From: Candidatus Poribacteria bacterium
GTDB lineage: Bacteria > Poribacteria > WGA-4E > WGA-3G
DNA length: 64,000 nucleotides
Direction: 5' to 3'
Assembly (NCBI GenBank): GCA_965214095.1
Contig: OZ243938.1
Span: forward strand, 544,001-608,000
Part shown: one piece after another, positions 52,107 through 64,000 of the stretch
Position numbering within the stretch: position 1 is the first letter of the stretch
How the letters are laid out: every line of letters begins with the position of its first letter
Made by a program: the position numbers and the translations under genes
The notes under the pieces: generated by a model
The model's database searches: none
What the model saw: the letters and a program-made list of their open reading frames with translations, nothing else
What the model was told of the DNA's origin: nothing

Positions 52107-54413
52107 ATGGAAATAGGACGTATCCGTTCCCTCCAAAGATTACTCCCAGACCTAAACATTAGTTACAGTGTCCACCTACGTCCTTATGTTCGCATAGTTG
52201 CAATATCGGCATTTTCATTAGCAATTGGAATAGGAATCGCACTACGCAACCATCTCAACTTTGAGTTTCATGACAGTTCAGGAGTAGTCGGTTGGATCAG
52301 TGTCCACCAGTATCCAAAACATCAAGAGTATTTCTACTATTTACTTGCTCTACTCGGAATACCGATCACCATTTGTGCCTATTGGTTCGTATGGCATACT
52401 TTCTCACAATGGGTGGCACAAGCAACCAAACAATCCCAACACAGAGTATTAAAGCTGAATGCCTTTGCATCAATTCCTTTGTGGTTGTGTTGGTTGCAGT
52501 TCCAAAACTATGCTGAAACTGATTATTTCTGGTTAATTCTACCCATAAGTTTATCACTAATCTTACATCTGATTCTATACTTGGTCAAGTATCAGTTTCT
52601 TCAAGCAAAACTGGATTCCGTATCATCTGAACCCTTAACCTTAATAGGTGGTACTACATCTACACAACCCAGCATTATCCTACTGATAAGACGTGCATGT
52701 AAATATATCATCATACCAATTTTTATCTATCTGCTCGTATATAATAGCGGCATAAATGGTAGAATCGATATGTTTCATGAGGGTGAAAGACTCGCGCCAC
52801 TGAATGAAATGCTACATGGGGGTGTCGTGTTCAAAGATGTCTATGTGCAGCATGGACTCTTCCAAAATGCATACTTAGCTTGGTTTGGCAGCAAAGTATT
52901 TGAGCCAACATTGATGGGTGTGCGTTCTATGGAACGCGTCTTGGGACCACTTGGATACATTGCCTTATACCTCCTCGGTCTACAAGTATTTCGTGGACGA
53001 TTTTTTACTGCTTTCTTATGTTTCCTGATAGTCTCTGGAAATAACTTCTCCATATCACCGAGACACTGCTTTGGTCTACTCAGTTTCACCTGTGTAGCAA
53101 ATTATCTCACATACAATAGAGATAAAGGGCTATTTGTAAGTTGGCAACGCACACCTTTTGATGAACGTAAATGGATTAGACATCTGTTCAAATTTGGGTG
53201 GAAACTGATTCTTGCAGGATTATTCACAAGCTTAGCATTTTGGTATAGCACGGAAGTCGGTCTTTATACACTCGGTGCAATCGGTCTGTTTTTATTCATT
53301 TACAGCCTACAACGTCGAATTCAGATGGAGATACGACCATTCCCGTTATCCAGTTATTGCTGCGGTCTACTGTTAGGTTTCCTCCCAGTTGCATTCTATT
53401 TTCTATCACACGGTGCATTTGATGATTTAATCTGGAATTCTTATATTCAGTGCAAATACCAACTTGCGACGTGGGGTCTCAAATACCCTTCACTTGCCAA
53501 CACACTGGCAATTATCTCAGATAGCGGATGGAAAGAATTCATTCTAAGCAATGGGTTTAGATGGTATCTTCCGATACTAATCTTTATGATTGCTGCGGGA
53601 TATCTTACATATCTGCGTTTGTGTAGAACAGACATCACACCTGAAGATACTATGAAACTTCTGTTGTTGTTACTTGGTGGCATCGCATTTTTCAGAACTG
53701 CACTTGGTAGATCAGACGGTGGTCATTTACATTTCGGATCAACATTCTTGTGGTTGCTCTGTTTATTCCCACTAGATAGAGGAATCTCTGGCATGATTGA
53801 TGGACTATTTACAGGTGAAGCAGTAGATGGTTTCCGTGAACGGTTGTCTCTACTCAAAGATAAAACACGTTGGCAACGAGTGTTGAAGTTGTCATGGATA
53901 CTTATACCAACAATAATGTGTATTTGGTATGTTGGGGCAGTTCATCACCCGTTGAAAGGATTAAGTAACAAGTGGAACAGAATGTTGGCAAACCAGTTTC
54001 AGACGAGAACTGCGCCTGCGGAATTGCAACGCGCAGGGAATGTTGATATTCCTGATGACCAAGTCGCACAGATACAGGAGGTGGTTACTTACATTCAGGA
54101 GAACACATCACCCGATGAGAAAATATTTGATTTTACAAGTCAAGGGGCATATTATTTCTTTGCAAACCGACCCAGTGTCACCCGATTCTATATGGTGTCT
54201 TACGCCGCAACGCCGGGGATGCAGCGAGAGGTAATTTCAGCACTTGAAAGCAATCAGACGCGTTTGGTGATATTCAAAACTGGGGGTTGGTTTGATAACG
54301 TGGATGGAGTACCAGTTGAGGAACGTCACCCGATAATTGCGGAATATTTAGATGAGCACTACGAACTCGATATCAATATAAACAATACCGAAATCCTGTT
54401 GCGAAAACAATAG
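52107..54413 (+). CDS. Polytopic membrane protein (possible GT-C-like glycosyltransferase)
   Basis: Many TM segments, DMFHEGE loop and a soluble C-terminal domain with YYFFANRP. Confidence 0.6.
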   Translation: MEIGRIRSLQRLLPDLNISYSVHLRPYVRIVAISAFSLAIGIGIALRNHLNFEFHDSSGVVGWISVHQYPKHQEYFYYLLALLGIPITICAYWFVWHTFSQWVAQATKQSQHRVLKLNAFASIPLWLCWLQFQNYAETDYFWLILPISLSLILHLILYLVKYQFLQAKLDSVSSEPLTLIGGTTSTQPSIILLIRRACKYIIIPIFIYLLVYNSGINGRIDMFHEGERLAPLNEMLHGGVVFKDVYVQHGLFQNAYLAWFGSKVFEPTLMGVRSMERVLGPLGYIALYLLGLQVFRGRFFTAFLCFLIVSGNNFSISPRHCFGLLSFTCVANYLTYNRDKGLFVSWQRTPFDERKWIRHLFKFGWKLILAGLFTSLAFWYSTEVGLYTLGAIGLFLFIYSLQRRIQMEIRPFPLSSYCCGLLLGFLPVAFYFLSHGAFDDLIWNSYIQCKYQLATWGLKYPSLANTLAIISDSGWKEFILSNGFRWYLPILIFMIAAGYLTYLRLCRTDITPEDTMKLLLLLLGGIAFFRTALGRSDGGHLHFGSTFLWLLCLFPLDRGISGMIDGLFTGEAVDGFRERLSLLKDKTRWQRVLKLSWILIPTIMCIWYVGAVHHPLKGLSNKWNRMLANQFQTRTAPAELQRAGNVDIPDDQVAQIQEVVTYIQENTSPDEKIFDFTSQGAYYFFANRPSVTRFYMVSYAATPGMQREVISALESNQTRLVIFKTGGWFDNVDGVPVEERHPIIAEYLDEHYELDININNTEILLRKQ

Positions 54414-54476: not shown

Positions 54477-55544
54477 TCAACCTTTATGTTGGTCTACAAA
54501 AATACGGTAAATGTCCTCAAATAATCTTACATCTGTTAATGTGTCTTCAGCAGAGGAACGGAATGGTTCTGGATTACGTAGGTTCTTGATAAAATACTCC
54601 GCTTCCCTGTGGTATGCCCACGTCCATGATGGTCTTGGAATCGGACGTGTAATTTCCTGTTCGTCTCCAGCCCTATAGATCTCAACTTCTGCAGGTGTGT
54701 TCTTCAATAACAACGGTGGTGCCCAAGTGTGAACCCATCCGTGTTGAAAATATATCTGTGAATGTTCATCCCAACGGTAGTGTGAAATGTGTCCTGTCTC
54801 CAGTGTCACTCGGATACCGTTCATATCAAGAATGACAACACCTGTATACCCGTTGTCATTCAGATCAACTGCTTTCACCGTGACATTGTCGCCAGCATCA
54901 AGAAACCACCGCATCAGATTAATATTGTGTGTATATTGTTGTAAGTATCCGATGTATGCTCCCCACCATTTTTCAGGTAGCCAATCAGGGAATTTCTGTG
55001 GTGCACTCGGTTTCGGTTCATCTGTATTATCCATCTGTGTATCAAGATTGCACACCCAATCGCCTCCAAAAGCGTGATTTCTGGCATAAGTCAAGCGACC
55101 CAGTTCCTCTGTTTCACGAAATTGTGTGATCTTTTCTTTGACAATCTCGTTGCCAGCATCGTATCGTTTCATATAGCCGACCATCAGCTTTTTTCCCGAT
55201 TCTCTTGACGCATCTACCATTTTTTGTGCTTGTTCTATGGAAATAGCCATCGGTTTTTCCATAAAGACATGTTTACCAGCAAGTAACAAATCTTTAGCGA
55301 TTTCTCCTTGTAAGGAAAAATCGGCTGAAACTGCTACAGCTTCAATTTCTGTATTTTGCGCGAGTTCTTGATGGTCTTTGTATAGGTGCGGAATACCAAA
55401 TCTACTTTGTACTTTCTTACCCAGATCAGTACGTATCTCAGCCAACCCGATGATTTCACATTCAGGAATGCTTGCAAAATTCGGGATATGCACCTTTTGC
55501 GCCATAAACCCACATCCAATATACCCGATTTTGACTTTTTCCAT
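54477..55544 (-). CDS. Gfo/Idh/MocA oxidoreductase
   Basis: GYIGCG, MEKP and VGYMKRYD motifs. Confidence 0.9.
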   Translation of the reverse strand: MEKVKIGYIGCGFMAQKVHIPNFASIPECEIIGLAEIRTDLGKKVQSRFGIPHLYKDHQELAQNTEIEAVAVSADFSLQGEIAKDLLLAGKHVFMEKPMAISIEQAQKMVDASRESGKKLMVGYMKRYDAGNEIVKEKITQFRETEELGRLTYARNHAFGGDWVCNLDTQMDNTDEPKPSAPQKFPDWLPEKWWGAYIGYLQQYTHNINLMRWFLDAGDNVTVKAVDLNDNGYTGVVILDMNGIRVTLETGHISHYRWDEHSQIYFQHGWVHTWAPPLLLKNTPAEVEIYRAGDEQEITRPIPRPSWTWAYHREAEYFIKNLRNPEPFRSSAEDTLTDVRLFEDIYRIFVDQHKG

Positions 55545-55556
55545 TTGGTAGACTCC

Positions 55557-55988
55557 TTATTCCTTAGGCGATTCTATCTCTTCAATTGCAGTTTGTGCAC
55601 CTTGCCTCACAAGTGCCGAAGAGTCATTCTGAGCAAGTGCTTTTAGTCGTGTAAGACAATGTTCTGCTGCCAATTTTCCAAGCGCGACAGCAACAAAATA
55701 CCTCACGTCTGCGTCTTCATCGTCCAGTGCGTCAAGCAATGCATCAACATCTGAAGGACTTGCGATGTGTCGTTCAATGTCACCTATATTAATCAAAGCT
55801 TGTGCTGTAATCCGTCGAGTATGAATATCACCGTGTTTTAAAGAGGACAGCAATTCATCATTTCCATTGTTGATAGCAGACAAGTTATCCCAATCACAAT
55901 CTAAACAGAACCATGACTTTTCGTCTAACTTTTGCACATTAGCATGACCACATTGTGGACAAACTGCATACTCACTGGGTTGACTCAT
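55557..55988 (-). CDS. Zn-ribbon + HEAT-repeat protein
   Basis: CPQC...CLDC, then DADVRYFVAVALG HEAT repeats. Confidence 0.8.
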   Translation of the reverse strand: MSQPSEYAVCPQCGHANVQKLDEKSWFCLDCDWDNLSAINNGNDELLSSLKHGDIHTRRITAQALINIGDIERHIASPSDVDALLDALDDEDADVRYFVAVALGKLAAEHCLTRLKALAQNDSSALVRQGAQTAIEEIESPKE

Positions 55989-56359
55989 GATGGTCCAATT
56001 GCCTCCATTTCAGGTAAATCTCTCCATATTTCTGGTCCCTCTGGTTTGAAATTTATAGTTGCGATGAACTGCATGCCGTGATAGAAATTGATCTTGAACT
56101 TACCACCACCAAAATGCTGTTTCAGATAGTCTAACGGAGCATCAATCAATGGACCCATTTCGTCCGCATAATAAAATGCAAGTGGTTTGAATCGCACTGT
56201 GTTTCCAACAGGTTCCTGCACTAAGAGTTGTGCGGAGGTTGCGGGAAATAGCACCTGAAAAGCATCCCACAAATCAGCGACTGTCGGATTCGGATTACCT
56301 ATACGCTTTTTGAAGTCGTTATCAAGATATTCAGAAAATGTGTTAAAAACCCAGTCCAT
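55985..56359 (-). CDS. Hypothetical protein
   Basis: 124-aa ORF, ATGA-coupled to the HEAT protein. Confidence 0.75.
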   Translation of the reverse strand: MDWVFNTFSEYLDNDFKKRIGNPNPTVADLWDAFQVLFPATSAQLLVQEPVGNTVRFKPLAFYYADEMGPLIDAPLDYLKQHFGGGKFKINFYHGMQFIATINFKPEGPEIWRDLPEMEAIGPS

Positions 56360-56386
56360 AATGAAACCTTGTCAAGTAATAGCGAT

Positions 56387-56962
56387 TTATTGCTCTAAAT
56401 CCACGCGTCTATAAACTTCGTTTAAAGAAAGTTTGCATCCAATTGAGGAAAGTGTGAATGTCTCCTGAAGTTCTTGATATTCTTTTAATCTCCACTGAGT
56501 GCCTTGAATTCGATGATGTTCAACTTTAATCTTGTCTTGTGAAACGAGAATATATTCTTTTAAAGTGGCGATTTGTTTATAGTAATTGAACTTCTCTGTT
56601 CTGTCATATATCTCAGTTGAAGGTGAAAGCACCTCTATAATTACCACTGGGTTGAGAAGTGTATCAAAGGTATCATCCTCAAATTGTGATTCACCGCAGG
56701 CAATAACAACATCGGGATAGAAATATGATTCTGATTGACTTTCCTTGACACGCATGTCTCCTGAAAAAACTTCACAATCTCGGTCACGTAATTGGATATT
56801 TATCTCAGTTGCAATATCAAGTGTAATGTAATTATGTGCACGACTCGCACCCGACATTGCGAGTATCTCTCCTCTAAGATATTCACTCTTGAATGTTGCC
56901 TTGCGTTCTAAATATAGATATTCCTCAGGTGAATATATAGTTTGTGCTCCAAGAGATGACAT
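56387..56962 (-). CDS. Uma2 family endonuclease
   Basis: AMSGAS..HN, YPDV, IEVLSPST and EYILV motifs. Confidence 0.92.
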   Translation of the reverse strand: MSSLGAQTIYSPEEYLYLERKATFKSEYLRGEILAMSGASRAHNYITLDIATEINIQLRDRDCEVFSGDMRVKESQSESYFYPDVVIACGESQFEDDTFDTLLNPVVIIEVLSPSTEIYDRTEKFNYYKQIATLKEYILVSQDKIKVEHHRIQGTQWRLKEYQELQETFTLSSIGCKLSLNEVYRRVDLEQ

Positions 56963-57028
56963 GGTTCCCTCCTTAAAGGATGATAATTTACATTACAAAT
57001 ATTCATTGAAACAACAGATAGAAATATT

Positions 57029-57517
57029 TTACATTCCAGGAGCCTTTAAGAAGTCCTTCCAATCAAAATCTGGCAGAGGGAACTCCTCTGTGGCTTTACA
57101 TTGTCAAAAGGTGGCGGCACTTTCAAAGAATTCTATATCAACACGTTCAATCTCTGCTGAACGTGCATTTTCAGCAACGCGTTGAACAACCATCTCTCGG
57201 ACAAACGGAATAGGAATACGTTTGACGCGGTGAACAACTTCCTCTGTGCATGGAACATTTGTGTTGTCAAGGTAAGGTCCATCATGTAACGGTGTTTCTG
57301 CAGGATGATCGCATGTCTCAGGAACAAGTTGCTGTAATCGCATTGAAACGTAATCTGTGACCCACTGTTGAAATTTTTCAGTGTTTTCAGTTTCAGGAAC
57401 ACTTGGTTGATTCGTCTGATCTAACTTTTCATTTATGTTGACAAGTAGGTTTTCTAATCGTCCCAATCGGTCTTCCACATTTGTGAGACGTTCTTGAACT
57501 TTCGTTTGATCGCTCAT
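57029..57517 (-). CDS. Coiled-coil + PCP_red-like protein, candidate selenoprotein with U-x-C tail (162 aa; 137 aa if TGA terminates at 57104)
   Basis: KRIPIPFVREMVV PCP_red-like motif. ...SAATF-TGA(57104-57106)-QCKATEEFPLPDFDWKDFLKAPGM-TAA, with a hairpin 13 nt after the TGA. The CDS is solid; the readthrough is inferred. Confidence 0.65.
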
Positions 57518-57526
57518 GTTTCCTCC

Positions 57527-58246
57527 TTAGATTGTCCAATATTTCCATAGATCTTCCGGAATTTCGTATCTTATCTCTTCACGACGTTTATGATGATAGC
57601 GTGCAAATAGCCCAACTCGTGGGATGTCTCTGATATTGCCTGAACCTGTATGACACAAATATGCATGCCATAGCACGACATCACCCGCAGCTCCGATAAA
57701 CTCACGTGCTCCTTCTGGTGATGAATCAGAAAAAATATTCCAACCCCATCCCTCAATATCTCTAAAACTTCCATCAACCTGTTCAGGATATTTTAGGAAA
57801 TATTTGTGTGTTGTCCGATGGCTTTTTGGCCAAAACACGAAAGCACCACCACCCGGTTCAACATCATATAGATATGTGGTTGCACCCATCATGAATGGAC
57901 TCCAACCACCGGGACCGTAAGCATCAATGTGTCCGCTTCCAGGCAATGACCATTCTGCATCTGGGTTTGGCCATTTGACGAGAGGAGAACCCCCTCCGCC
58001 TGTAAATTCGCCTCCACTAAATTGCTGTATTATCGCTTGCATCTCCGGTAAATGTCCAAAGTTTGGAGAAAAACCGAAGTTTTCTACAACATAATTATCT
58101 GGCCATGTCTCTGGTGTTTCTAAACTGGAATTGAAATGCTTCCAAATCTGTTCACGCCAACCATTAATGACTTCTGTATCAATTAAGTTTTTAATAACCA
58201 GGTATCCGTTCTCTTGAAAAAACTCAACCTGTTTAGGTGCTAACAT
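57527..58246 (-). CDS. PhyH-family dioxygenase
   Basis: FFQENGYL, GHID, WPKSH and GDV..WH..LCH motifs. ATG at 58246 follows GAGGA. Confidence 0.85.
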   Translation of the reverse strand: MLAPKQVEFFQENGYLVIKNLIDTEVINGWREQIWKHFNSSLETPETWPDNYVVENFGFSPNFGHLPEMQAIIQQFSGGEFTGGGGSPLVKWPNPDAEWSLPGSGHIDAYGPGGWSPFMMGATTYLYDVEPGGGAFVFWPKSHRTTHKYFLKYPEQVDGSFRDIEGWGWNIFSDSSPEGAREFIGAAGDVVLWHAYLCHTGSGNIRDIPRVGLFARYHHKRREEIRYEIPEDLWKYWTI

Positions 58247-58313
58247 AAAAGTTTCCTCTATCGTCAAATGTTGTATTCGGGTAAAAGTCACTCCTACAGA
58301 AGAAATTACATAT

Positions 58314-59618
58314 CTAACTCTTAGGTCTGAAAGAGGGAATACCAGTCTTATCAAATCTGGATTTGACTGATTTCATAATTTCTGGAGTAATTTCCTGATA
58401 TCCGTGTTCACGCGCATATGTTTCAACACTCTTGACAACCATGCCACGCGCAAACGATGGCACACGTTTCAGTCTTTCTTCTGCAGCATCATTCCAAAGT
58501 AAATCGTAATCGGGTTCTGTGCCAAACGCTGTTCGTTTCTCAAGTTGTATAGGTTTATTGTCTCTTTGTCCTGGTTGGTATTCGCAAGATTCATCTGCTG
58601 CGAGATAGTTGCCAGTGGTAGCATAGGCACGTGCCCTACAACCACCGCATACTTCTTTAAATTCACATACCCCACATTTTCCCTCAAGCAAGTTCCGATT
58701 TCGTAATTCATCAAATGTTTCCGATTCATTCCACAGCTTGGAAAAACTTTCATCTTTAAGATTTCCAACGCTGACGGGAAGGTATGGACAAGGAGTCAAT
58801 TCACCTTCAGGACTAATGCGACAATAGTAGATACCACATGGACATGTGCCACTTGGATATCCCTGAAGGAATGCTGAGTCGGACTGCTGTTCATAAATGA
58901 CACGTTTGTAATGTGGTGCACATTTGGACGCAATAAGCATCTTCCCAATATAATCTTTCTGTAGTTTGAACATAGTATCCAGCATGTTCTCATATTGTTC
59001 TGGCGAGATGTCCATTACAGTCTTTCCTCTGCCTGTTCGGACGAGAAAATACAGATTTAGCACCTTTGCCCCTAACTGATATGCGAACTCAACGATCTTA
59101 GGAATTTCATCATAGTTCCACTGCGTAACTGATGTCTGTATAAGAAAATCAAGATGTGCGCGTTTAAGGGATTCTACCCCATTCATTGTCGCCTGCCATG
59201 CTCCCGGCATGCCACGAAACTTGTCATGTTCAGACGGTCGGATAGAATCTATACTTAATCCCGCTCCGGTTACACCGTGTTTTTGCATCTGCTCTACTAC
59301 ATCGTCATTGAGTAGCACACCGTTAGTTCCCATCACAACAAGAAAACCCGTATCCGATGCATATTTTGAAATCTCAAGAATATCTGGACGCAGCAACGGT
59401 TCCCCACCTGTAAGTATCAATAGGATATGAGGATTGATTTCCGCAATCTCATCAATAACGCGAAAGCATTCTGATTGTGTTAACTCAGATTCTCTGTGAT
59501 ACCCGTGCGGGAACTCGTCTGTGTCTACGAAACCCGCTGGTAGATAGCAGTGCATACATTTCAGATTACATAATCTGGTGATATTCCATGAGACTGCTTG
59601 AACTTTTGTTTTTTCCAT
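58314..59618 (-). CDS. Radical SAM/SPASM enzyme (NirJ/Ahb/PqqE-like) with C-terminal PCP_red-like domain
   Basis: CNLKCMHC, TGGEP, SPASM Cys pattern (CPC...PCPY...CGVC...CGGCRARA...C). Tail WNDAAEERLKRVPSFARGMV. Confidence 0.9.
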   Translation of the reverse strand: MEKTKVQAVSWNITRLCNLKCMHCYLPAGFVDTDEFPHGYHRESELTQSECFRVIDEIAEINPHILLILTGGEPLLRPDILEISKYASDTGFLVVMGTNGVLLNDDVVEQMQKHGVTGAGLSIDSIRPSEHDKFRGMPGAWQATMNGVESLKRAHLDFLIQTSVTQWNYDEIPKIVEFAYQLGAKVLNLYFLVRTGRGKTVMDISPEQYENMLDTMFKLQKDYIGKMLIASKCAPHYKRVIYEQQSDSAFLQGYPSGTCPCGIYYCRISPEGELTPCPYLPVSVGNLKDESFSKLWNESETFDELRNRNLLEGKCGVCEFKEVCGGCRARAYATTGNYLAADESCEYQPGQRDNKPIQLEKRTAFGTEPDYDLLWNDAAEERLKRVPSFARGMVVKSVETYAREHGYQEITPEIMKSVKSRFDKTGIPSFRPKS

Positions 59619-60077
59619 TTAATTTCTCAGTAGCAATGAAAGAGCAAAAACAACTGAACCCGATAACAGTGTTAGATATCCAAGAACATTGACATGTGTA
59701 GGTACAGTGATTGAACTGTCAGGCTCCACTGCTTCAAGGTGTTTGCGATATAATGAACTGTATAATCCCCAGCAAAGTGCCATAATGCCAAATGCTGCCA
59801 ATTTTGCTGCAGAATATATCATATACTCCGATTCTACTTGCATATTATTATTCCACGCAACAATGAAAATTACAATACCACCTGTCAATAGAATGATGTT
59901 TATTGTCAATCGCATTGCACCTTGAAAGCGATTGTGAATGTCTAACAACACATTTGCTTGGAGTTTTTTCTGGCCTAAAGGTATTGCTATGAAAGAATAA
60001 AAGAACACGCCTCCGAACCATAAGATTGCTGCGATTAGATGTATACATCGGAGGGAAAGTTCAACGACTTGGCGCAT
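59619..60077 (-). CDS. 4-TM membrane protein (CopD/DUF4149-like)
   Basis: IHLIAAILWFGG motif and four hydrophobic helices. Confidence 0.7.
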   Translation of the reverse strand: MRQVVELSLRCIHLIAAILWFGGVFFYSFIAIPLGQKKLQANVLLDIHNRFQGAMRLTINIILLTGGIVIFIVAWNNNMQVESEYMIYSAAKLAAFGIMALCWGLYSSLYRKHLEAVEPDSSITVPTHVNVLGYLTLLSGSVVFALSLLLRN

Positions 60078-60119
60078 TGGTTGATATTGACTGGCTTATC
60101 CTTTTTATATTATATGAGA

Positions 60120-60434
60120 TTATACATCATCACATCTCTCATAAAAACTAACCCCATGAAGTTCAATTTGTGCTACCATATCTGGATTTCCTATTTTACT
60201 AAAATCGGATATGTCAATTGTATAGGGTAGAAGCAGATCATCAAGATCAAAGTCAATTTTAGTGAGTACGCTGTGTGTTAATCCTTCACCACAGAATGTT
60301 AGGTCAATGTCAGAGCCGTTTCGATATGTACCCGTTGCACGTGATCCATACAAAATTGCTTTATAAATCTGTGGATACTTTTGAAAGACACTATGTATTT
60401 TTTCAATAGTGCTGTCTGATAATCCGTATTTCAT
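60120..60434 (-). CDS. Minimal nucleotidyltransferase (MNT antitoxin)
   Basis: LYGSRA...SDIDL. Confidence 0.9.
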   Translation of the reverse strand: MKYGLSDSTIEKIHSVFQKYPQIYKAILYGSRATGTYRNGSDIDLTFCGEGLTHSVLTKIDFDLDDLLLPYTIDISDFSKIGNPDMVAQIELHGVSFYERCDDV

Positions 60435-60439
60435 AAAAA

Positions 60440-60853
60440 CTATTCCTGTTCAAGTTGTTTTAATCTTGCTAACAACGTCTCAAACTCAGAGTAATAAATA
60501 TTGAGAATTGCCAATACCACCTCTTCTGCGGTATCTTCATTATATGTATGGGTTGTTAGATTACGATGTCGTATCATATCCATCCAGGCTTCTCCATTTT
60601 CGATTATTCCTTCTTTGAATGCTGCACGTGTTGTATCGCGAGAACCATAAAGTTTGAAATCTTGTGATTGAAGAAAATCCTTGAGGGTATTCCATGCTAA
60701 TTCATGAGTATATACAAATCCTTGTATCAAACCCTGGGCTTCTAAATCAGAGAGTTCCCGTTTCTTAGCAAGGTCTACAGCTTCCTTTAGTCGAGAAAAC
60801 GCTTTACGAAAACTATCAGCTCTCTGTTTCCAGCGGTTGGTAGGAAGGTTCAT
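60440..60853 (-). CDS. HEPN / nucleotidyltransferase substrate-binding protein (HI0074-like)
   Basis: RWKQR, ELAW and RNLTTHTY (Rx4H) motifs. Confidence 0.9.
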   Translation of the reverse strand: MNLPTNRWKQRADSFRKAFSRLKEAVDLAKKRELSDLEAQGLIQGFVYTHELAWNTLKDFLQSQDFKLYGSRDTTRAAFKEGIIENGEAWMDMIRHRNLTTHTYNEDTAEEVVLAILNIYYSEFETLLARLKQLEQE

Positions 60854-60911
60854 TGTGTACTCACATTTTATCTAAAATGAAACTGTATAGGATTTGAATA
60901 AGCGTTTAGAA

Positions 60912-61430
60912 CTACATTGGAAAGTTTCCGCGTGCTGCATCCATTACTTCAGCAGTAATTTCAGTATGTCCATTGTCTTTGGCAAAACCTTCAATTCCCA
61001 TTTTCGCCATCGGACGCACAAAACTTGGGATTCGCTCTAACCGTTCCAATGCTTCTGGAGTCCATTTTACTCCATCAGGTTCTGGTTCTGCTTGCTCCTC
61101 AAAAGCATCCGAGATAACTGAGGTAAAGGGACATTTACCGCCTTCTTCTGATTTGCTTATGTCTGTGTCAAAGGTAGTATCAGTCATCATATCTGGTTTA
61201 GAGGTCTCTAACTGTGAACGTATCAACTGCATTGGTTGAGCTGCAGCGTTACTTCCCCCGAGTTTCAGGTCTAAGGATTTCAACATCTGTGTTTCTGAAG
61301 GGTTTAGGAACATAGCAATCTCAGTGAAACACTCTGGACACTCAAATACTGCGGTGACAGATCCCTGTTCAGGTTGGGTTACGTCTTTGAATTTCATTGC
61401 CGTGTCGCAGTCTATACATAGGAATTTCAT
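60912..61430 (-). CDS. Zn-ribbon + CPF + PCP_red-like domain protein
   Basis: CIDC...CPEC, GKCPF, and WTPEALERLERIPSFVRPMAK. Confidence 0.85.
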   Translation of the reverse strand: MKFLCIDCDTAMKFKDVTQPEQGSVTAVFECPECFTEIAMFLNPSETQMLKSLDLKLGGSNAAAQPMQLIRSQLETSKPDMMTDTTFDTDISKSEEGGKCPFTSVISDAFEEQAEPEPDGVKWTPEALERLERIPSFVRPMAKMGIEGFAKDNGHTEITAEVMDAARGNFPM

Positions 61431-61466
61431 CTTCTCACTCCATTATTCTCTATAAATGCTAAAAAA

Positions 61467-62339
61467 CTAAATTTTGAAGAAATCTTGTATCTTCTGAGAT
61501 ACCTCTGATATGGATTTACTTGCTAAAGATTTCGGGTATTCGTGGACATAAGGTGTACCGTTGTCGTTACATAAAGACAACTTTGGATCGAAAGGTATCT
61601 TTCCAAGGAGCATTTGCTGAAACGATGTATCATCAGCAGAAAAGAGTTGTTCGTGTTCACCGCAGTGCTGGCATACATAGAATGCCATATTTTCAACAAC
61701 TCCAATGATTGGCACGTTGAGTATGTCACTTGCCATAGAAATAGATTTCTTTACGATCAGGTTTGACACATCGGAAGGAATGGTTACAACGACGACACCA
61801 CCGAGATTTGGAATGAGTTCAACAACATTTGGTAAACGATCAGAACCTGGTGGCAGATCAAGCAGTAGAAAATCTAACGCTCCCCAATCAGTGTCACCGA
61901 TAAACTCCCTTAATGCTCCTACTTCCATAGTGCTACGCCATGTGAATGCATCCTTTTGGGTGTGCGCGTTCCATAATACTGGTGCATCATCGTCTGATAG
62001 GAGTAGATCCATTGAAATGACTTTTGTACCGAGTGATGTTATAGCCGGTTTGACACCAGATTCAACATACTCAAGCGAGGTGTTTCGAACACCCATCATT
62101 TTGGCGATCGTAGGTCCGTTGATATCAGCATCAACAACACCGACAGCAAAACCAGATAATGTTAGGGCAGTCGCAAGGTTTACCGTTACAGCACTCTTTC
62201 CGACTCCTCCTTTTCCACTCATAATTGTGATGGTATGTTTCACCGATGCCAGGCGCGTACTGATTCGGTTCGCTTGTGCGGTGACTTGTCCAATTATGTT
62301 AGAACCTGCATCCTTTGGGAGTTCCTCGTAAGTTTTCAT
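61467..62339 (-). CDS. Mrp/ApbC/NBP35 Fe-S carrier ATPase
   Basis: SGKGGVGKS, DADINGP, DLPPG and ENM..CQHC motifs. Confidence 0.92.
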   Translation of the reverse strand: MKTYEELPKDAGSNIIGQVTAQANRISTRLASVKHTITIMSGKGGVGKSAVTVNLATALTLSGFAVGVVDADINGPTIAKMMGVRNTSLEYVESGVKPAITSLGTKVISMDLLLSDDDAPVLWNAHTQKDAFTWRSTMEVGALREFIGDTDWGALDFLLLDLPPGSDRLPNVVELIPNLGGVVVVTIPSDVSNLIVKKSISMASDILNVPIIGVVENMAFYVCQHCGEHEQLFSADDTSFQQMLLGKIPFDPKLSLCNDNGTPYVHEYPKSLASKSISEVSQKIQDFFKI

Positions 62340-63610
62340 TCTATCTTGCCGATTGCATACAAGGCATCATAACTCCGTAAATAGAGAGTGCCATCAGCAA
62401 CAATAGGTGATGCAGCAACGGCTTCATCTATTGAATTGGTCGCCACGACTTCAAATTCGCGTCCTGCCTTAACAACTGTGACAACACCGTCACGAGCTGT
62501 TAGGTAGATATTGCCATTAGCATAGACAGGTGAAGATCGATGACGATGGTTATGTGTTCGTTCCTCATAGAGTTTTTCACCTGTTTTGGCATCAAGACAG
62601 ATAAGTACACCGTTTTCTCGGCAAAGGTAGACTAAGCCATCGTGAATAAGTGGGGATGGCACATCAGGCGTTCCACGTCCAAGTTTCCATATCTGCCATT
62701 CGCTTTCCGTTATGTCACCTTGACCAGATGGGTCTAAACCCAGTACAGGACCATTTTTTGCCGATGGAACAACTATGAGTCCTTCAGTTGCTACTGGAGA
62801 GGCAACGAGTCGGAAGGAAGTATTATACCTTTGTTTAGCGTTTAGTCCACCACATCGCCAAATCTCACTACCATCATCAAGACTATGTGCGGTAACATAA
62901 TCTGCACCATGAACAATGAGTAATTCTCTCTCTGCATCTTTATATAATATTGGCGAGGTGTATGCATGTTCACATTCTGCCCTTGCGTCACTTTTCCTGT
63001 CGTGCATCCATATCTCTTCACCTGTCATCTTATCAAGTGCAAGAACTAACCATGCGTTGCTGTGGATGAGTTGAAGGTATAATCTGTCTTTGTATAGCAG
63101 CGGAGTCATTGACATCAGGAAACCGAGTCTAAAATTACCATATCGTTCCTCAATATTTGTCTTCCATATACTATTTCCTTCAAAATCGTAGCAAACAAGA
63201 TCCCCTGTTCCGAGAAATGCCCAAACATATTTACCATCGGTTGTGGGAGAAGGAGCAGCATAGTTGACTTCATCGCCTCGTTTAGTACGATTGCCTTCTG
63301 CTAATGTGCGTTTCCATAATTCTTCGCCATCTGTGTTGATACACATCAGAACTAATTCCATGCCATCTGCACATGTCAGAAAAATCTTATCATTCCAAAC
63401 AACAGGAGTAGATGCGCCTTCACCCGGTAATGGAAGTCTCCAACGTACATTCTCAGTCTGACTCCACTGAATTGGCACATCAGTTTCATTGCTGATTCCG
63501 TCATTGTTTGCCCCTCTCCACTGATGCCAGTTTTCAGAAAAACAGTCATCTATTGGTATGAGAGATAATATAAGGATTATAACCAAATTACTGATTAACA
63601 GTTTCCGCAT
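62336..63610 (-). CDS. Secreted PQQ-like beta-propeller protein
   Basis: WHQWRG and repeated SP...W blades. Likely ATG at 63610 after GGAGG; ATGA-coupled to Mrp. Confidence 0.88.
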   Translation of the reverse strand: MRKLLISNLVIILILSLIPIDDCFSENWHQWRGANNDGISNETDVPIQWSQTENVRWRLPLPGEGASTPVVWNDKIFLTCADGMELVLMCINTDGEELWKRTLAEGNRTKRGDEVNYAAPSPTTDGKYVWAFLGTGDLVCYDFEGNSIWKTNIEERYGNFRLGFLMSMTPLLYKDRLYLQLIHSNAWLVLALDKMTGEEIWMHDRKSDARAECEHAYTSPILYKDAERELLIVHGADYVTAHSLDDGSEIWRCGGLNAKQRYNTSFRLVASPVATEGLIVVPSAKNGPVLGLDPSGQGDITESEWQIWKLGRGTPDVPSPLIHDGLVYLCRENGVLICLDAKTGEKLYEERTHNHRHRSSPVYANGNIYLTARDGVVTVVKAGREFEVVATNSIDEAVAASPIVADGTLYLRSYDALYAIGKIE

Positions 63611-63773
63611 GATATTCCTCCATTTTCTCGGAATGCAAATAAAAGTAACTATTTCATTGTCTCTACCTTCGTCTATTTGTATATTTGTCACCTAACTTTT
63701 ACCTTGATTATGTTTATATTAAGATAGCATATTCTGAATGAATATGCTATGTATTTGTTGTATATTATAGTGA

Positions 63774-63876
63774 TATAGTGAATTATAAATATAAGTTAAC
63801 ACTTTCACCCCACGGTAGGCGAGGTTTCCTAACCTCGCTGATGCAGAGTGTTCAAGTAATTTCAAAATCTACCATA
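63774..63876. mobile_element. 103-bp MITE with single REP (copy 3 of 3)
   Basis: Near-identical to the 21083 and 24262 copies. Confidence 0.85.
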
Positions 63877-63895
63877 AATCAGATACGATTTCGAT

Positions 63896-64000
63896 TTATT
63901 CTGTATTTTCTGGTTGTTCAACTTGATAGTACTCACCTAACACTTCATTAGCAAGACTTCTCCCATCTTCAATGACCCGTGCAGCGAAATCTAGAGATAT
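63896..64000 (-). CDS. C-terminal end of a gene starting beyond the window
   Basis: Open frame ISLDFAARVIEDGRSLANEVLGEYYQVEQPENTE-TAA. Confidence 0.6.
   Translation of the reverse strand: MSLDFAARVIEDGRSLANEVLGEYYQVEQPENTE

Follow-up and report, generated by a model that had tools for sequence, protein, structure and literature searches.

What is PCP_red (PF08369), the C-terminal domain of the BchB/ChlB subunit of dark-operative protochlorophyllide reductase (DPOR), doing on several unlike proteins of a single gene cluster in Candidatus Poribacteria? The cluster lies in a 64,000-nt stretch of contig OZ243938.1 (hereafter the window, whose numbering is used unless a position carries the prefix C1, which marks genome contig positions), where positions 54477-64000 form a single run of co-oriented genes, all on the minus strand (Table 1). 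Here PCP_red is reused on different proteins in a conserved gene order, a radical SAM/SPASM enzyme belongs to a clade separate from AhbC and AhbD, and a coiled-coil protein carries a selenocysteine (Sec) codon. Tentatively, and with rather less than even confidence, I read the cluster as an accessory module for haem finishing and haem-copper-oxidase biogenesis in Poribacteria, with PCP_red as its shared adaptor.

The PCP_red profile has 45 positions and a Pfam gathering cut-off of 32.5 bits. Two proteins of the cluster carry a clear match over profile positions 1-45 of 45, namely the Zn-ribbon protein at residues 123-167 (64.7 bits, or 67.4 in a six-frame search) and the radical SAM/SPASM enzyme at residues 375-419 (55.5 bits, or 59.9 in a six-frame search). 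A sequence-only reading of this DNA had assigned the same tail to a third gene, that of the coiled-coil selenoprotein, whose residues 93-134 score 22.2 bits (E 1.5e-4), under the cut-off; the shared tail is thus secure for two of the three. Because many orthologues of the coiled-coil protein have a precomputed PF08369 match (NCBI calls one a 'PCP reductase family protein') and its tail aligns, profile to profile, with that of the Zn-ribbon family (hhalign, 48 columns, E 3.4e-4, probability 37.7%), I take it, on these alignments, to be a true but divergent PCP_red copy. The whole 5.25-Mb genome, searched in six frames, has six PF08369 matches in four proteins, all at C1:601116-608771 (7.7 kb), and the absence of a bchL/N/B context that had been reported from the window agrees with this, as none of the six is in a BchB-like gene. 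The fourth protein shows that the cluster runs past the end of the window: its gene, of which the window holds the 3' end, extends to C1:609806 (L007:896-2806) and encodes 636 residues with two USP domains (Usp 112.9 bits), a rubredoxin-like knuckle (RUBY_RBDX 22.8 bits, below the cut-off of 26.5) and three more PCP_red copies (94 bits in three stretches).

An alignment of the six copies shows a common pattern, W-x-x-E-A ... P-x-F-x-R ... A ... I-T, in which the Arg of P-x-F-x-R is invariant and no His, Cys, Met or Tyr is conserved. Each partner protein in the cluster bears a redox or metal site, and in the tagged proteins other than the selenoprotein PCP_red is at the extreme C-terminus, with no peptide beyond. 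The tail of the Zn-ribbon protein aligns with ChlB residues 459-506 of 2XDQ (E 4.4e-5) and with residues 3-52 of the stand-alone PCP_red protein 2L09 (Asr4154; E 5.1e-4), the other solved stand-alone protein being 2KRU. Unlike in BchB/ChlB, the domain is here found on radical SAM, USP and Zn-ribbon proteins and on a selenoprotein, and it is repeated; arrays reach 2 to 5 copies per frame or protein and genomes up to 12 copies. The portions of the DPOR reviews and of a 2025 cryo-electron microscopy paper available to me make no statement on the role of PCP_red within BchB. The safest conclusion at this point is that AhbD-family tetrapyrrole enzymes and BchB have PCP_red as an accessory domain, that in several phyla it is also found on small proteins with redox or metal sites, and that Poribacteria have gathered this set, along with Mrp and a membrane protein, at a haem-copper oxidase locus.

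How widely is this arrangement kept? Among 61 genomes of the phylum (mutually related, so that counts within it are not independent), 54 have 5-6 PF08369 matches and the other seven, all from other families, have none. The gene for a 124-residue protein of the cluster is present in the same 54 genomes and its product is 74-100% identical across them. Conservation on this scale excludes chance, and the proposal of one module placed on several unlike proteins within a single conserved cluster is supported. Furthermore, the Mrp, His-bearing four-helix membrane (4-TM), 124-residue and Zn-ribbon-HEAT genes named as its members are all in place on the minus strand. Through an alignment of the radical SAM enzyme I fetched 80 loci with 10-kb flanks, many of them cut by contig ends or by the flank, and 59 of these are of the Poribacteria type (56 so labelled, and three labelled 'uncultured' with identical gene order). 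Their common order is USP-3xPCP_red, propeller, Mrp, Zn-ribbon-PCP_red, 4-TM, radical SAM-PCP_red, PhyH (0-2 copies), coiled-coil-PCP_red, 124-residue protein and Zn-ribbon-HEAT. One genus has the block split, with the cox genes, USP, Mrp and Zn-ribbon genes in one part and the 4-TM gene, the radical SAM gene and everything downstream in the other.

Table 1. Features of the minus-strand gene run, in window coordinates, with the number of loci (out of the 80 fetched) that have a match
Feature	Position	Strand	Detail	Loci (of 80)
USP/rubredoxin-like/3x PCP_red protein, 636 aa, 3' end	63896..64000	-	last 34 codons and stop codon	30, same place
PQQ-like (BamB-type) beta-propeller with N-terminal hydrophobic signal/anchor	62336..63691	-	PQQ_2 83.6 bits	20, between USP gene and Mrp
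Mrp/NUBPL-type P-loop Fe-S carrier ATPase, 290 aa	61467..62339	-	PF10609 232.1 bits	32
Zn-ribbon-PCP_red protein, 172 aa	60912..61430	-	4-Cys knuckle, G-G-K-C-P-F, PCP_red tail at nt 60930-61064	30
HepT-like/MntA-like toxin-antitoxin pair	60120..60853	-	insert at variable spot	
Four-helix membrane (4-TM) protein, 152 aa	59619..60077	-	distant CopD/HemJ-like relative, sub-cut-off family matches	59, next to radical SAM gene
Radical SAM/SPASM enzyme, 434 aa, AhbD/NirJ2 family	58314..59618	-	PCP_red tail at nt 58362-58496	80
PhyH-type Fe(II)/2-oxoglutarate dioxygenase	57527..58354	-	family match	41
Coiled-coil/divergent PCP_red/F-U-Q-C selenoprotein, 162 aa	57029..57517	-	UGA at 57104-57106	58
SECIS-like hairpin, 6-bp stem and 5-nt loop, G at second loop position	57074..57090	-	starts 13 nt past UGA	
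Uma2-family endonuclease	56387..56962	-	insert at variable spot	
124-aa protein, no known family	55985..56359	-	conserved in phylum	47
Zn-ribbon-HEAT protein, 143 aa, 4-Cys Zn-ribbon and PBS-lyase-type HEAT repeats	55557..55988	-	HEAT_2 43.9 bits	48
GFO/IDH/MocA oxidoreductase	54477..55544	-	closes conserved block in this genome family	41

The radical SAM enzyme, as the one protein common to all of these loci, is the natural place to look for a function. Its best NCBIfam matches, both full-length, are AhbD (TIGR04545; 327.7 bits, E 1e-98) and NirJ2 (TIGR04055; 309.8 bits, E 3e-92), and it matches the radical SAM (PF04055, 81.1 bits) and SPASM (PF13186, 33.8 bits) domains, has the CX3CX2C motif, and shares with these families its radical SAM and SPASM auxiliary-cluster cysteines, which are invariant in seven sequences. 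The PqqE, MftC and SbtM models also match, at E 1e-20 to 1e-36. It is the sole AhbD/NirJ-like gene of its genome, the next-best match reaching 42.7 bits, and so the genome is without AhbC and has no siroheme route to haem. Ferrochelatase (233 bits) adjoins a HemY-type oxidase (305 bits), a ChdC-like gene is present and no true HemN was found in the genome, which together indicate a coproporphyrin-type haem pathway. Such a setting is on record for AhbD: according to the part of a 2026 review that I could consult (PMC13564367), the enzyme occurs in organisms that use the coproporphyrin pathway and have no other Ahb enzyme.

Is it then simply the AhbD of this organism? The same radical SAM-PCP_red architecture occurs, at about 50% identity, in Brocadiaceae (612-687 residues with three PCP_red copies, one named 'nirJ 3' by its source), Nitrospirota and Nitrospinota, and five non-Poribacteria genomes holding such an enzyme were searched whole for AhbC and AhbD paralogues. 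Both Brocadia and Kuenenia have, besides this enzyme, a true AhbC scoring 738-740 bits (cut-off 650) and a near-canonical AhbD scoring 491-497 bits, a third genome (G063, marine) carries a 496-bit AhbD, and the Nitrospiria and Nitrospinota genomes carry a 459-489-bit AhbD-like enzyme that is itself PCP_red-tailed, so that the two types coexist in all five. A tree of 21 rows (11 radical SAM-PCP_red proteins from the 80 loci, spanning phyla, and 10 paralogues of the five genomes; its reference points are these paralogues, without an experimentally characterised AhbD) resolves three supported clades, AhbC/NirJ (99/99), near-AhbD (97/99) and that of the window's enzyme (96/100; 11 rows). PCP_red is carried by 11/11 members of the last and by 2/5 of the near-canonical AhbD proteins. 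I therefore reject the enzyme as a plain AhbD, in line with the sequence-only reading: it differs from AhbD and NirJ2 in forming a distinct paralogous clade, in falling below the cut-offs of both models (500 bits each) and in bearing one or three PCP_red domains. A His-rich N-terminal extension of 40-65 residues precedes the radical SAM core in the AhbD proteins, close to canonical, of Brocadia, Kuenenia and the marine genome (L115:2974-4218, L116:2974-4206, L117:2962-4152).

The coiled-coil gene raises a question of its own, since its frame reaches full length only by reading through a UGA, which becomes U138 in an F-U-Q-C motif. TGA stands at this position in 59/59 Poribacteria-type copies (58 loci and the window), and in all of them it is followed in frame by Q-C-K/E-A-T/S-E-E-F-P-L..., 23-24 codons in length, and then a stop. 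Across the 55 distinct sequences, third codon positions around the UGA vary and the residues are constant. Supporting this, a distant high-GC lineage on metagenome contigs (L124-L203), reached via 50%-identity representatives and a metagenome scan, has a TGA after A-T-F in 80/80 copies, then Q-C-K-L-S-G-E-D... and a conserved extension of about 23 codons to the stop, before which six of the 80 contigs end. The genome of the window also has the machinery, with SelB (355.5 bits; cut-off 242), SelD (361.4 bits; cut-off 125) and a tRNA-Sec adjoining selB. From this conservation and this machinery I take the protein, earlier put forward as a candidate, to be a real selenoprotein of a previously unrecognised family, mis-annotated as 137 residues. 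Indeed, the 120 database homologues listed of 1244 matches all stop before the UGA, most at exactly 137 residues. None of these 120, nor any of the 7 of 67 representatives inspected, has Cys at the Sec position; one representative has W there, which I take to be a TGA read by another code, and another has R. C69, H71, C90, U138 and C140 are invariant in 20 sequences, and a conserved stretch of 24 residues follows the PCP_red domain. The publications found on Poribacteria and selenocysteine deal, judged by titles and the openings of abstracts, with other subjects.

A hairpin resembling a selenocysteine insertion sequence (SECIS), judged against the general consensus rules for bacterial elements, follows the UGA. 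In the alignment of 55 sequences 98.2% of its cells are paired, against 50.6-67.0% when the partner strand is slid, and columns 30, 33 and 39, which are third codon positions within the hairpin, are invariant; the shuffle control was uninformative. There were no compensatory double changes in that alignment, and the minimum-free-energy fold of the 93 nt past the UGA is no better than shuffles (z 0.21), the hairpin appearing only in a shorter fold (z-score -1.45) and in the alignment. Because no compensatory double change was seen, the RNA evidence for a SECIS element is suggestive only. The SelD gene itself (C1:1272212-1273138, outside the window; L098) has one in-frame TGA and so probably encodes a Sec-containing protein. 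Neighbours of the distant selenoprotein lineage include a MaoC dehydratase, a UbiE-like methyltransferase, Smr and, once, URO-D with a RACo-type activator; these loci have nothing in common with the cluster, and phmmer found the radical SAM enzyme in 0/80 of them (five also scanned with Pfam).

The remaining members include Mrp. Its GKGGVGKS Walker A motif and its CxxC (C223 and C226), both shared with other PF10609 carriers (cut-off 27.1), are invariant in 23 sequences. It misses the equivalog cut-offs of MrpORP, its best NCBIfam match (227.7 bits; cut-off 450), and of ApbC (163 bits; cut-off 348). Unlike MrpORP, from the Desulfovibrio Orange-protein complex, its 290 residues cover profile positions 2-249 of 365, and no cluster protein scanned matches the Orange-protein models. 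In the Zn-ribbon-PCP_red protein the knuckle cysteines C5, C8, C31 and C34 are invariant, as is the motif G-G-K-C-P-F (C100), and Cys-Pro is the core of haem regulatory motifs. In the 4-TM protein His13, at the start of helix 1, is invariant in 21/21 sequences, as are Trp20, Arg50 and Lys92. Its model is a four-helix bundle (predicted local distance difference test, pLDDT, 88.6), for which a fold search against the PDB returned no relative at E <= 0.001, only generic four-helix bundles. All of its family matches are below cut-off, among them CopD (PF05425, 21.6 bits against 32.1; NCBIfam CopD, 30.5 against 195), HemJ (PF03653, 17.6 against 34.2), UPF0093, DUF2269 and the urate oxidase N-terminal domain. 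The model of the 124-residue protein is poor (pLDDT 65.1) and its fold matches reach TM-scores <= 0.31, and they are thus not usable. The best ESM Atlas scores are 0.80 for this protein and 0.88 for the N-terminal part of the Zn-ribbon protein (whose nearest clusters carry PCP_red), scores below 0.9 being leads only. Finally, the Zn-ribbon-HEAT protein has only weak matches to the NblB, CpcE and CpcF models.

If the enzyme is of a tetrapyrrole family, do its neighbours point the same way? Upstream of the block in Poribacteria are coxII, coxI, ctaA, ctaB, coxIII, coxIV and sco1, and in the genome of the window the genes beyond the USP gene are, in order, sco1, coxIV, coxIII, a methylase insert, a second coxIII-like gene, ctaB, ctaA, coxI and coxII. 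In the three loci without PhyH or GFO that were scanned (L044, L032 and L065) the HEAT protein is followed by DUF420 (CtaM), then a ChdC-like gene and then an ABC-2 system. Judged by coordinates, the ChdC-like gene lies 1.4-3.6 kb from the 124-residue gene in 17/17 genomes of the families f2 and f3, including the genus in which the latter is no longer part of the radical SAM block. The genome of the window has its ChdC-like/ABC-2 pair about 64 kb away and DUF420 at C1:5112044. The ChdC-like gene of every one of the 54 genomes with PCP_red covers just the second half of the Pfam profile, at 56-70 bits. A full-length ChdC of 190 bits occurs in two genomes from another family of the phylum that lack PCP_red, and G052, also without PCP_red, has the half-profile form. 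In the parts of the two papers that I could consult, CtaM is needed for aa3 oxidase function in Staphylococcus aureus (PMC4958251), and a CopD domain and CtaM support the aa3 oxidases of Bacillus subtilis, where CtaM is tied to copper handling (PMC13344008). The PCP_red block thus shares its locus with haem-copper oxidase assembly factors (CtaA, CtaB, Sco1, CtaM, and the CopD domain of YcnJ, of which the 4-TM protein is a weak relative), and the PCP_red proteins, the radical SAM enzyme and Mrp are not among such factors in the abstracts and listings of that literature.

Outside Poribacteria the company of the enzyme is different. Orthologues of Mrp, the 4-TM protein, the selenoprotein, the 124-residue protein and the HEAT protein were found in 0/21 Brocadiales, Nitrospirota and Nitrospinota loci (10-kb flanks); Mrp is matched weakly in two of the 21, and Pfam identifies the one of these that was scanned (L029) as a ParA-type ATPase. 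What recurs, across four phyla, is the pairing of a USP-PCP_red with a radical SAM-PCP_red protein. In Nitrospiria (L049) a tandem-USP-PCP_red gene is directly upstream of the enzyme and HmuY follows it, in Nitrospinota (L104) such a gene is directly upstream of the second enzyme type (AhbD-like, PCP_red-tailed), and in Brocadia and Kuenenia both proteins are present but apart, the USP gene of Brocadia being beside an EB_dh gene. PF08369 occurs in 39/81 sampled Nitrospirota genomes, with up to 12 copies each, and a pair of PCP_red-bearing frames of about 550-714 and 430-504 residues, about 2 kb apart and assigned by frame length only, occurs in at least 13 genomes of that sample besides G064. 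In two Nitrospinota/Nitrospirae loci, set among housekeeping genes, the gene immediately upstream of the enzyme encodes an FmdB-type Zn-ribbon. All three Brocadiales loci scanned (L014, L021 and L029) have, downstream of the radical SAM-3xPCP_red gene, genes for a dCache-HAMP histidine kinase and a transglutaminase-like protein, with a single-domain response regulator between these two in two of the three. In the marine genome G063 (L110:1-2025) the gene for a 197-residue protein with two PCP_red copies lies at a distance of two genes from that for an ArsA/Get3-type ATPase (292 bits), so that PCP_red is for a second time found close to an ATPase of the SIMIBI class.

The haem-finishing module that I tentatively favour would work as follows. 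The radical SAM/SPASM enzyme at its centre would carry out an O2-independent, AhbD-type oxidative decarboxylation of tetrapyrrole propionate side chains, which in this genome would turn coproheme into haem b beside the divergent ChdC-like protein of the coproporphyrin-dependent pathway. The 45-residue, three-helix PCP_red domain would be a portable adaptor on the enzyme and on small redox or metal proteins (the USP protein with its rubredoxin-like knuckle, the four-Cys-knuckle protein with its Cys-Pro, and the U-x-C selenoprotein), and would hold these partners at the enzyme for the supply or removal of electrons and the hand-off of substrate or product. Mrp would load the three [4Fe-4S] clusters of the enzyme, and the CopD/HemJ-like protein would connect the module with the membrane, so that haem or copper could reach the oxidase. 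In this scheme it is the substrate, the adaptor role and the parts given to Mrp, the membrane protein and the selenoprotein that I infer. The sequence-only reading had suggested Fe-S delivery to a tetrapyrrole- or protein-modifying radical SAM enzyme. Its tetrapyrrole half fares better than its Fe-S docking half, because the enzyme is of the AhbD family and has cox, ctaA, ctaB, CtaM and ChdC-like neighbours and, in one locus, HmuY.

Several observations weigh against this scheme. The enzyme falls well short of the AhbD cut-off, and the reaction of its clade may differ from that of AhbD because it coexists with a near-canonical AhbD in Brocadia, Kuenenia and G063. The best weak match of the 4-TM protein is CopD, a copper protein, rather than HemJ; the USP protein is the only cluster neighbour conserved outside Poribacteria; and anammox bacteria are anaerobes, for which a link to an oxidase cannot hold. 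Furthermore, the ChdC-like gene may already cover haem b synthesis, conservation inside one phylum is not independent evidence, and the binding of PCP_red to anything is something I infer. A search on Kuenenia haem biosynthesis and coproporphyrin found no literature, and searches on PCP_red with radical SAM and on PF08369 found no description of this system. A related scheme, to my mind rather unlikely, keeps PCP_red as a portable docking module, gives the radical SAM-PCP_red clade a tetrapyrrole step other than that of AhbD and makes the selenoprotein a redox or metal partner in Poribacteria. The separate reaction is argued from the coexistence of the enzyme with AhbC and AhbD in anammox genomes, and in Poribacteria, anammox bacteria, Nitrospirota and Nitrospinota alike the module would bring several proteins together into one radical SAM machine.

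What else might PCP_red be for? The original proposal was that proteins with the tag dock through it on the Mrp dimer, much as BchB meets BchL, so that Mrp could deliver Fe-S clusters to tagged clients. Mrp does adjoin the Zn-ribbon-PCP_red gene and the pair stays together where the cluster splits in one genus, the ArsA/Get3-type ATPase of the marine genome lies close to a double PCP_red protein, and folding the Zn-ribbon protein together with the Mrp dimer gave a predicted complex with a score of 0.53 (runs 0.57, 0.00 and 0.53), the best of three controls scoring 0.00. However, in that fold the pLDDT of the partner is 51-64, the runs agree in at least 2% of contacts and no interface is reported. 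The mark of the tool is reached by 58/80 solved complexes and 2/110 mismatched pairs, but at scores <= 0.60 by only seven of those 80 and by both mismatches, so that, by this calibration, a score of 0.53 misleads more often than not for any pair that was not likely beforehand; the fold thus gives weak support to docking on Mrp. PCP_red is also found on proteins without an Fe-S site (USP domains, and PCP_red-only repeats of 197 and 345 residues), and Mrp is beside the radical SAM gene only in loci of the Poribacteria type. Of the PCP_red/Mrp neighbourhoods that had been suggested for other non-phototrophs, the recurrence of PCP_red proteins is real but the adjacency to Mrp is, in the loci compared, confined to Poribacteria. 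Given the weak fold and this missing adjacency, I keep docking on Mrp as an unlikely alternative. The same low probability attaches to the idea that PCP_red itself handles tetrapyrroles, as a lid or carrier for coproheme or haem, which would make the tagged and multi-copy proteins haem chaperones or buffers instead of electron partners. It would account for the enzymes fused to PCP_red being of tetrapyrrole type (BchB/ChlB and the AhbD family), with non-enzyme partners as the other hosts, and for the arrays and high copy numbers. The invariant Arg could meet a propionate, the Cys-Pro of the Zn-ribbon protein resembles signatures named as haem regulatory motifs in the part of PMC2742820 that I could consult, and the haem-binding neighbours HmuY and EB_dh occur at one locus each. 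Yet the domain has no conserved residue for iron ligation, its 45 residues leave a small pocket, and no data on binding turned up for 2L09 and 2KRU, as judged by their entry names.

Two further explanations turn on the neighbours. Copper is the first concern of one, in which the block would be chiefly a copper and assembly module for cytochrome aa3, the 4-TM protein a CopD-type importer, the Cys- and Sec-rich proteins copper chaperones and the radical SAM enzyme a separate matter. The weak CopD match of the 4-TM protein, Sco1 upstream and CtaM downstream in two families, the B. subtilis work on CopD and CtaM (PMC13344008, as available to me) and the five invariant Cys, His and Sec residues of the selenoprotein all speak for it. 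I consider it very unlikely, as the 4-TM gene abuts the radical SAM gene with zero gap and stays with it when the cluster leaves the cox genes, the tagged proteins show no signal peptide (as read from their sequences) and would thus be cytoplasmic, and PCP_red proteins and the enzyme clade are also found in anammox genomes. In the other explanation, which I regard as highly improbable, the SPASM enzyme is a maturase of proteins or peptides, PCP_red is a recognition handle like the Nif11 or nitrile-hydratase leaders of ribosomally synthesised and post-translationally modified peptides, and the U-x-C peptide of the selenoprotein is the substrate. SPASM enzymes are often peptide maturases, in line with the PqqE, MftC and SbtM matches, and a conserved stretch comes after PCP_red in the selenoprotein. 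But the E-values for AhbD and NirJ2 are lower by some 60 orders of magnitude, none of the 21 non-Poribacteria loci with an enzyme of this clade has the selenoprotein, its distant relatives have no radical SAM neighbour in the 80 loci searched, and the other tagged proteins end at PCP_red with no core peptide.

Some features of the locus stand apart from these questions. The stop of the propeller gene and the start of Mrp overlap by 4 nt, and the true start of PhyH is likely near 58243, which would give a protein of 239 residues, matching other genomes. The HepT/MntA pair and the Uma2 gene occupy two intergenic spots of the conserved operon that elsewhere are empty or hold other inserts of 0.7-2.5 kb, so these spots look like recurrent landing sites. 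A 289-residue DNA methyltransferase-like gene (by sequence) lies between the two coxIII-like genes (L007:4888-5757; C1:611888-612757). Just past the GFO gene, on the plus strand, a 768-residue multi-pass membrane protein (52107-54413) is kept in 35/80 loci. Rfam and tRNA scans of the window gave no match.

What would this cluster mean for the biology of these organisms? It gives PCP_red, known to Pfam mainly from BchB though common in non-phototrophs, a first functional setting; it marks out a third clade among the radical SAM enzymes of the AhbD/AhbC tetrapyrrole type; and it adds a new selenoprotein family that annotation pipelines cut at the UGA. For anammox and nitrite-oxidising bacteria, it points to a further step in haem handling. 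For Poribacteria, as sponge symbionts facing swings in oxygen, a final step of haem synthesis that needs no O2 and is coupled to the oxidase locus would, if true, be a testable adaptation.

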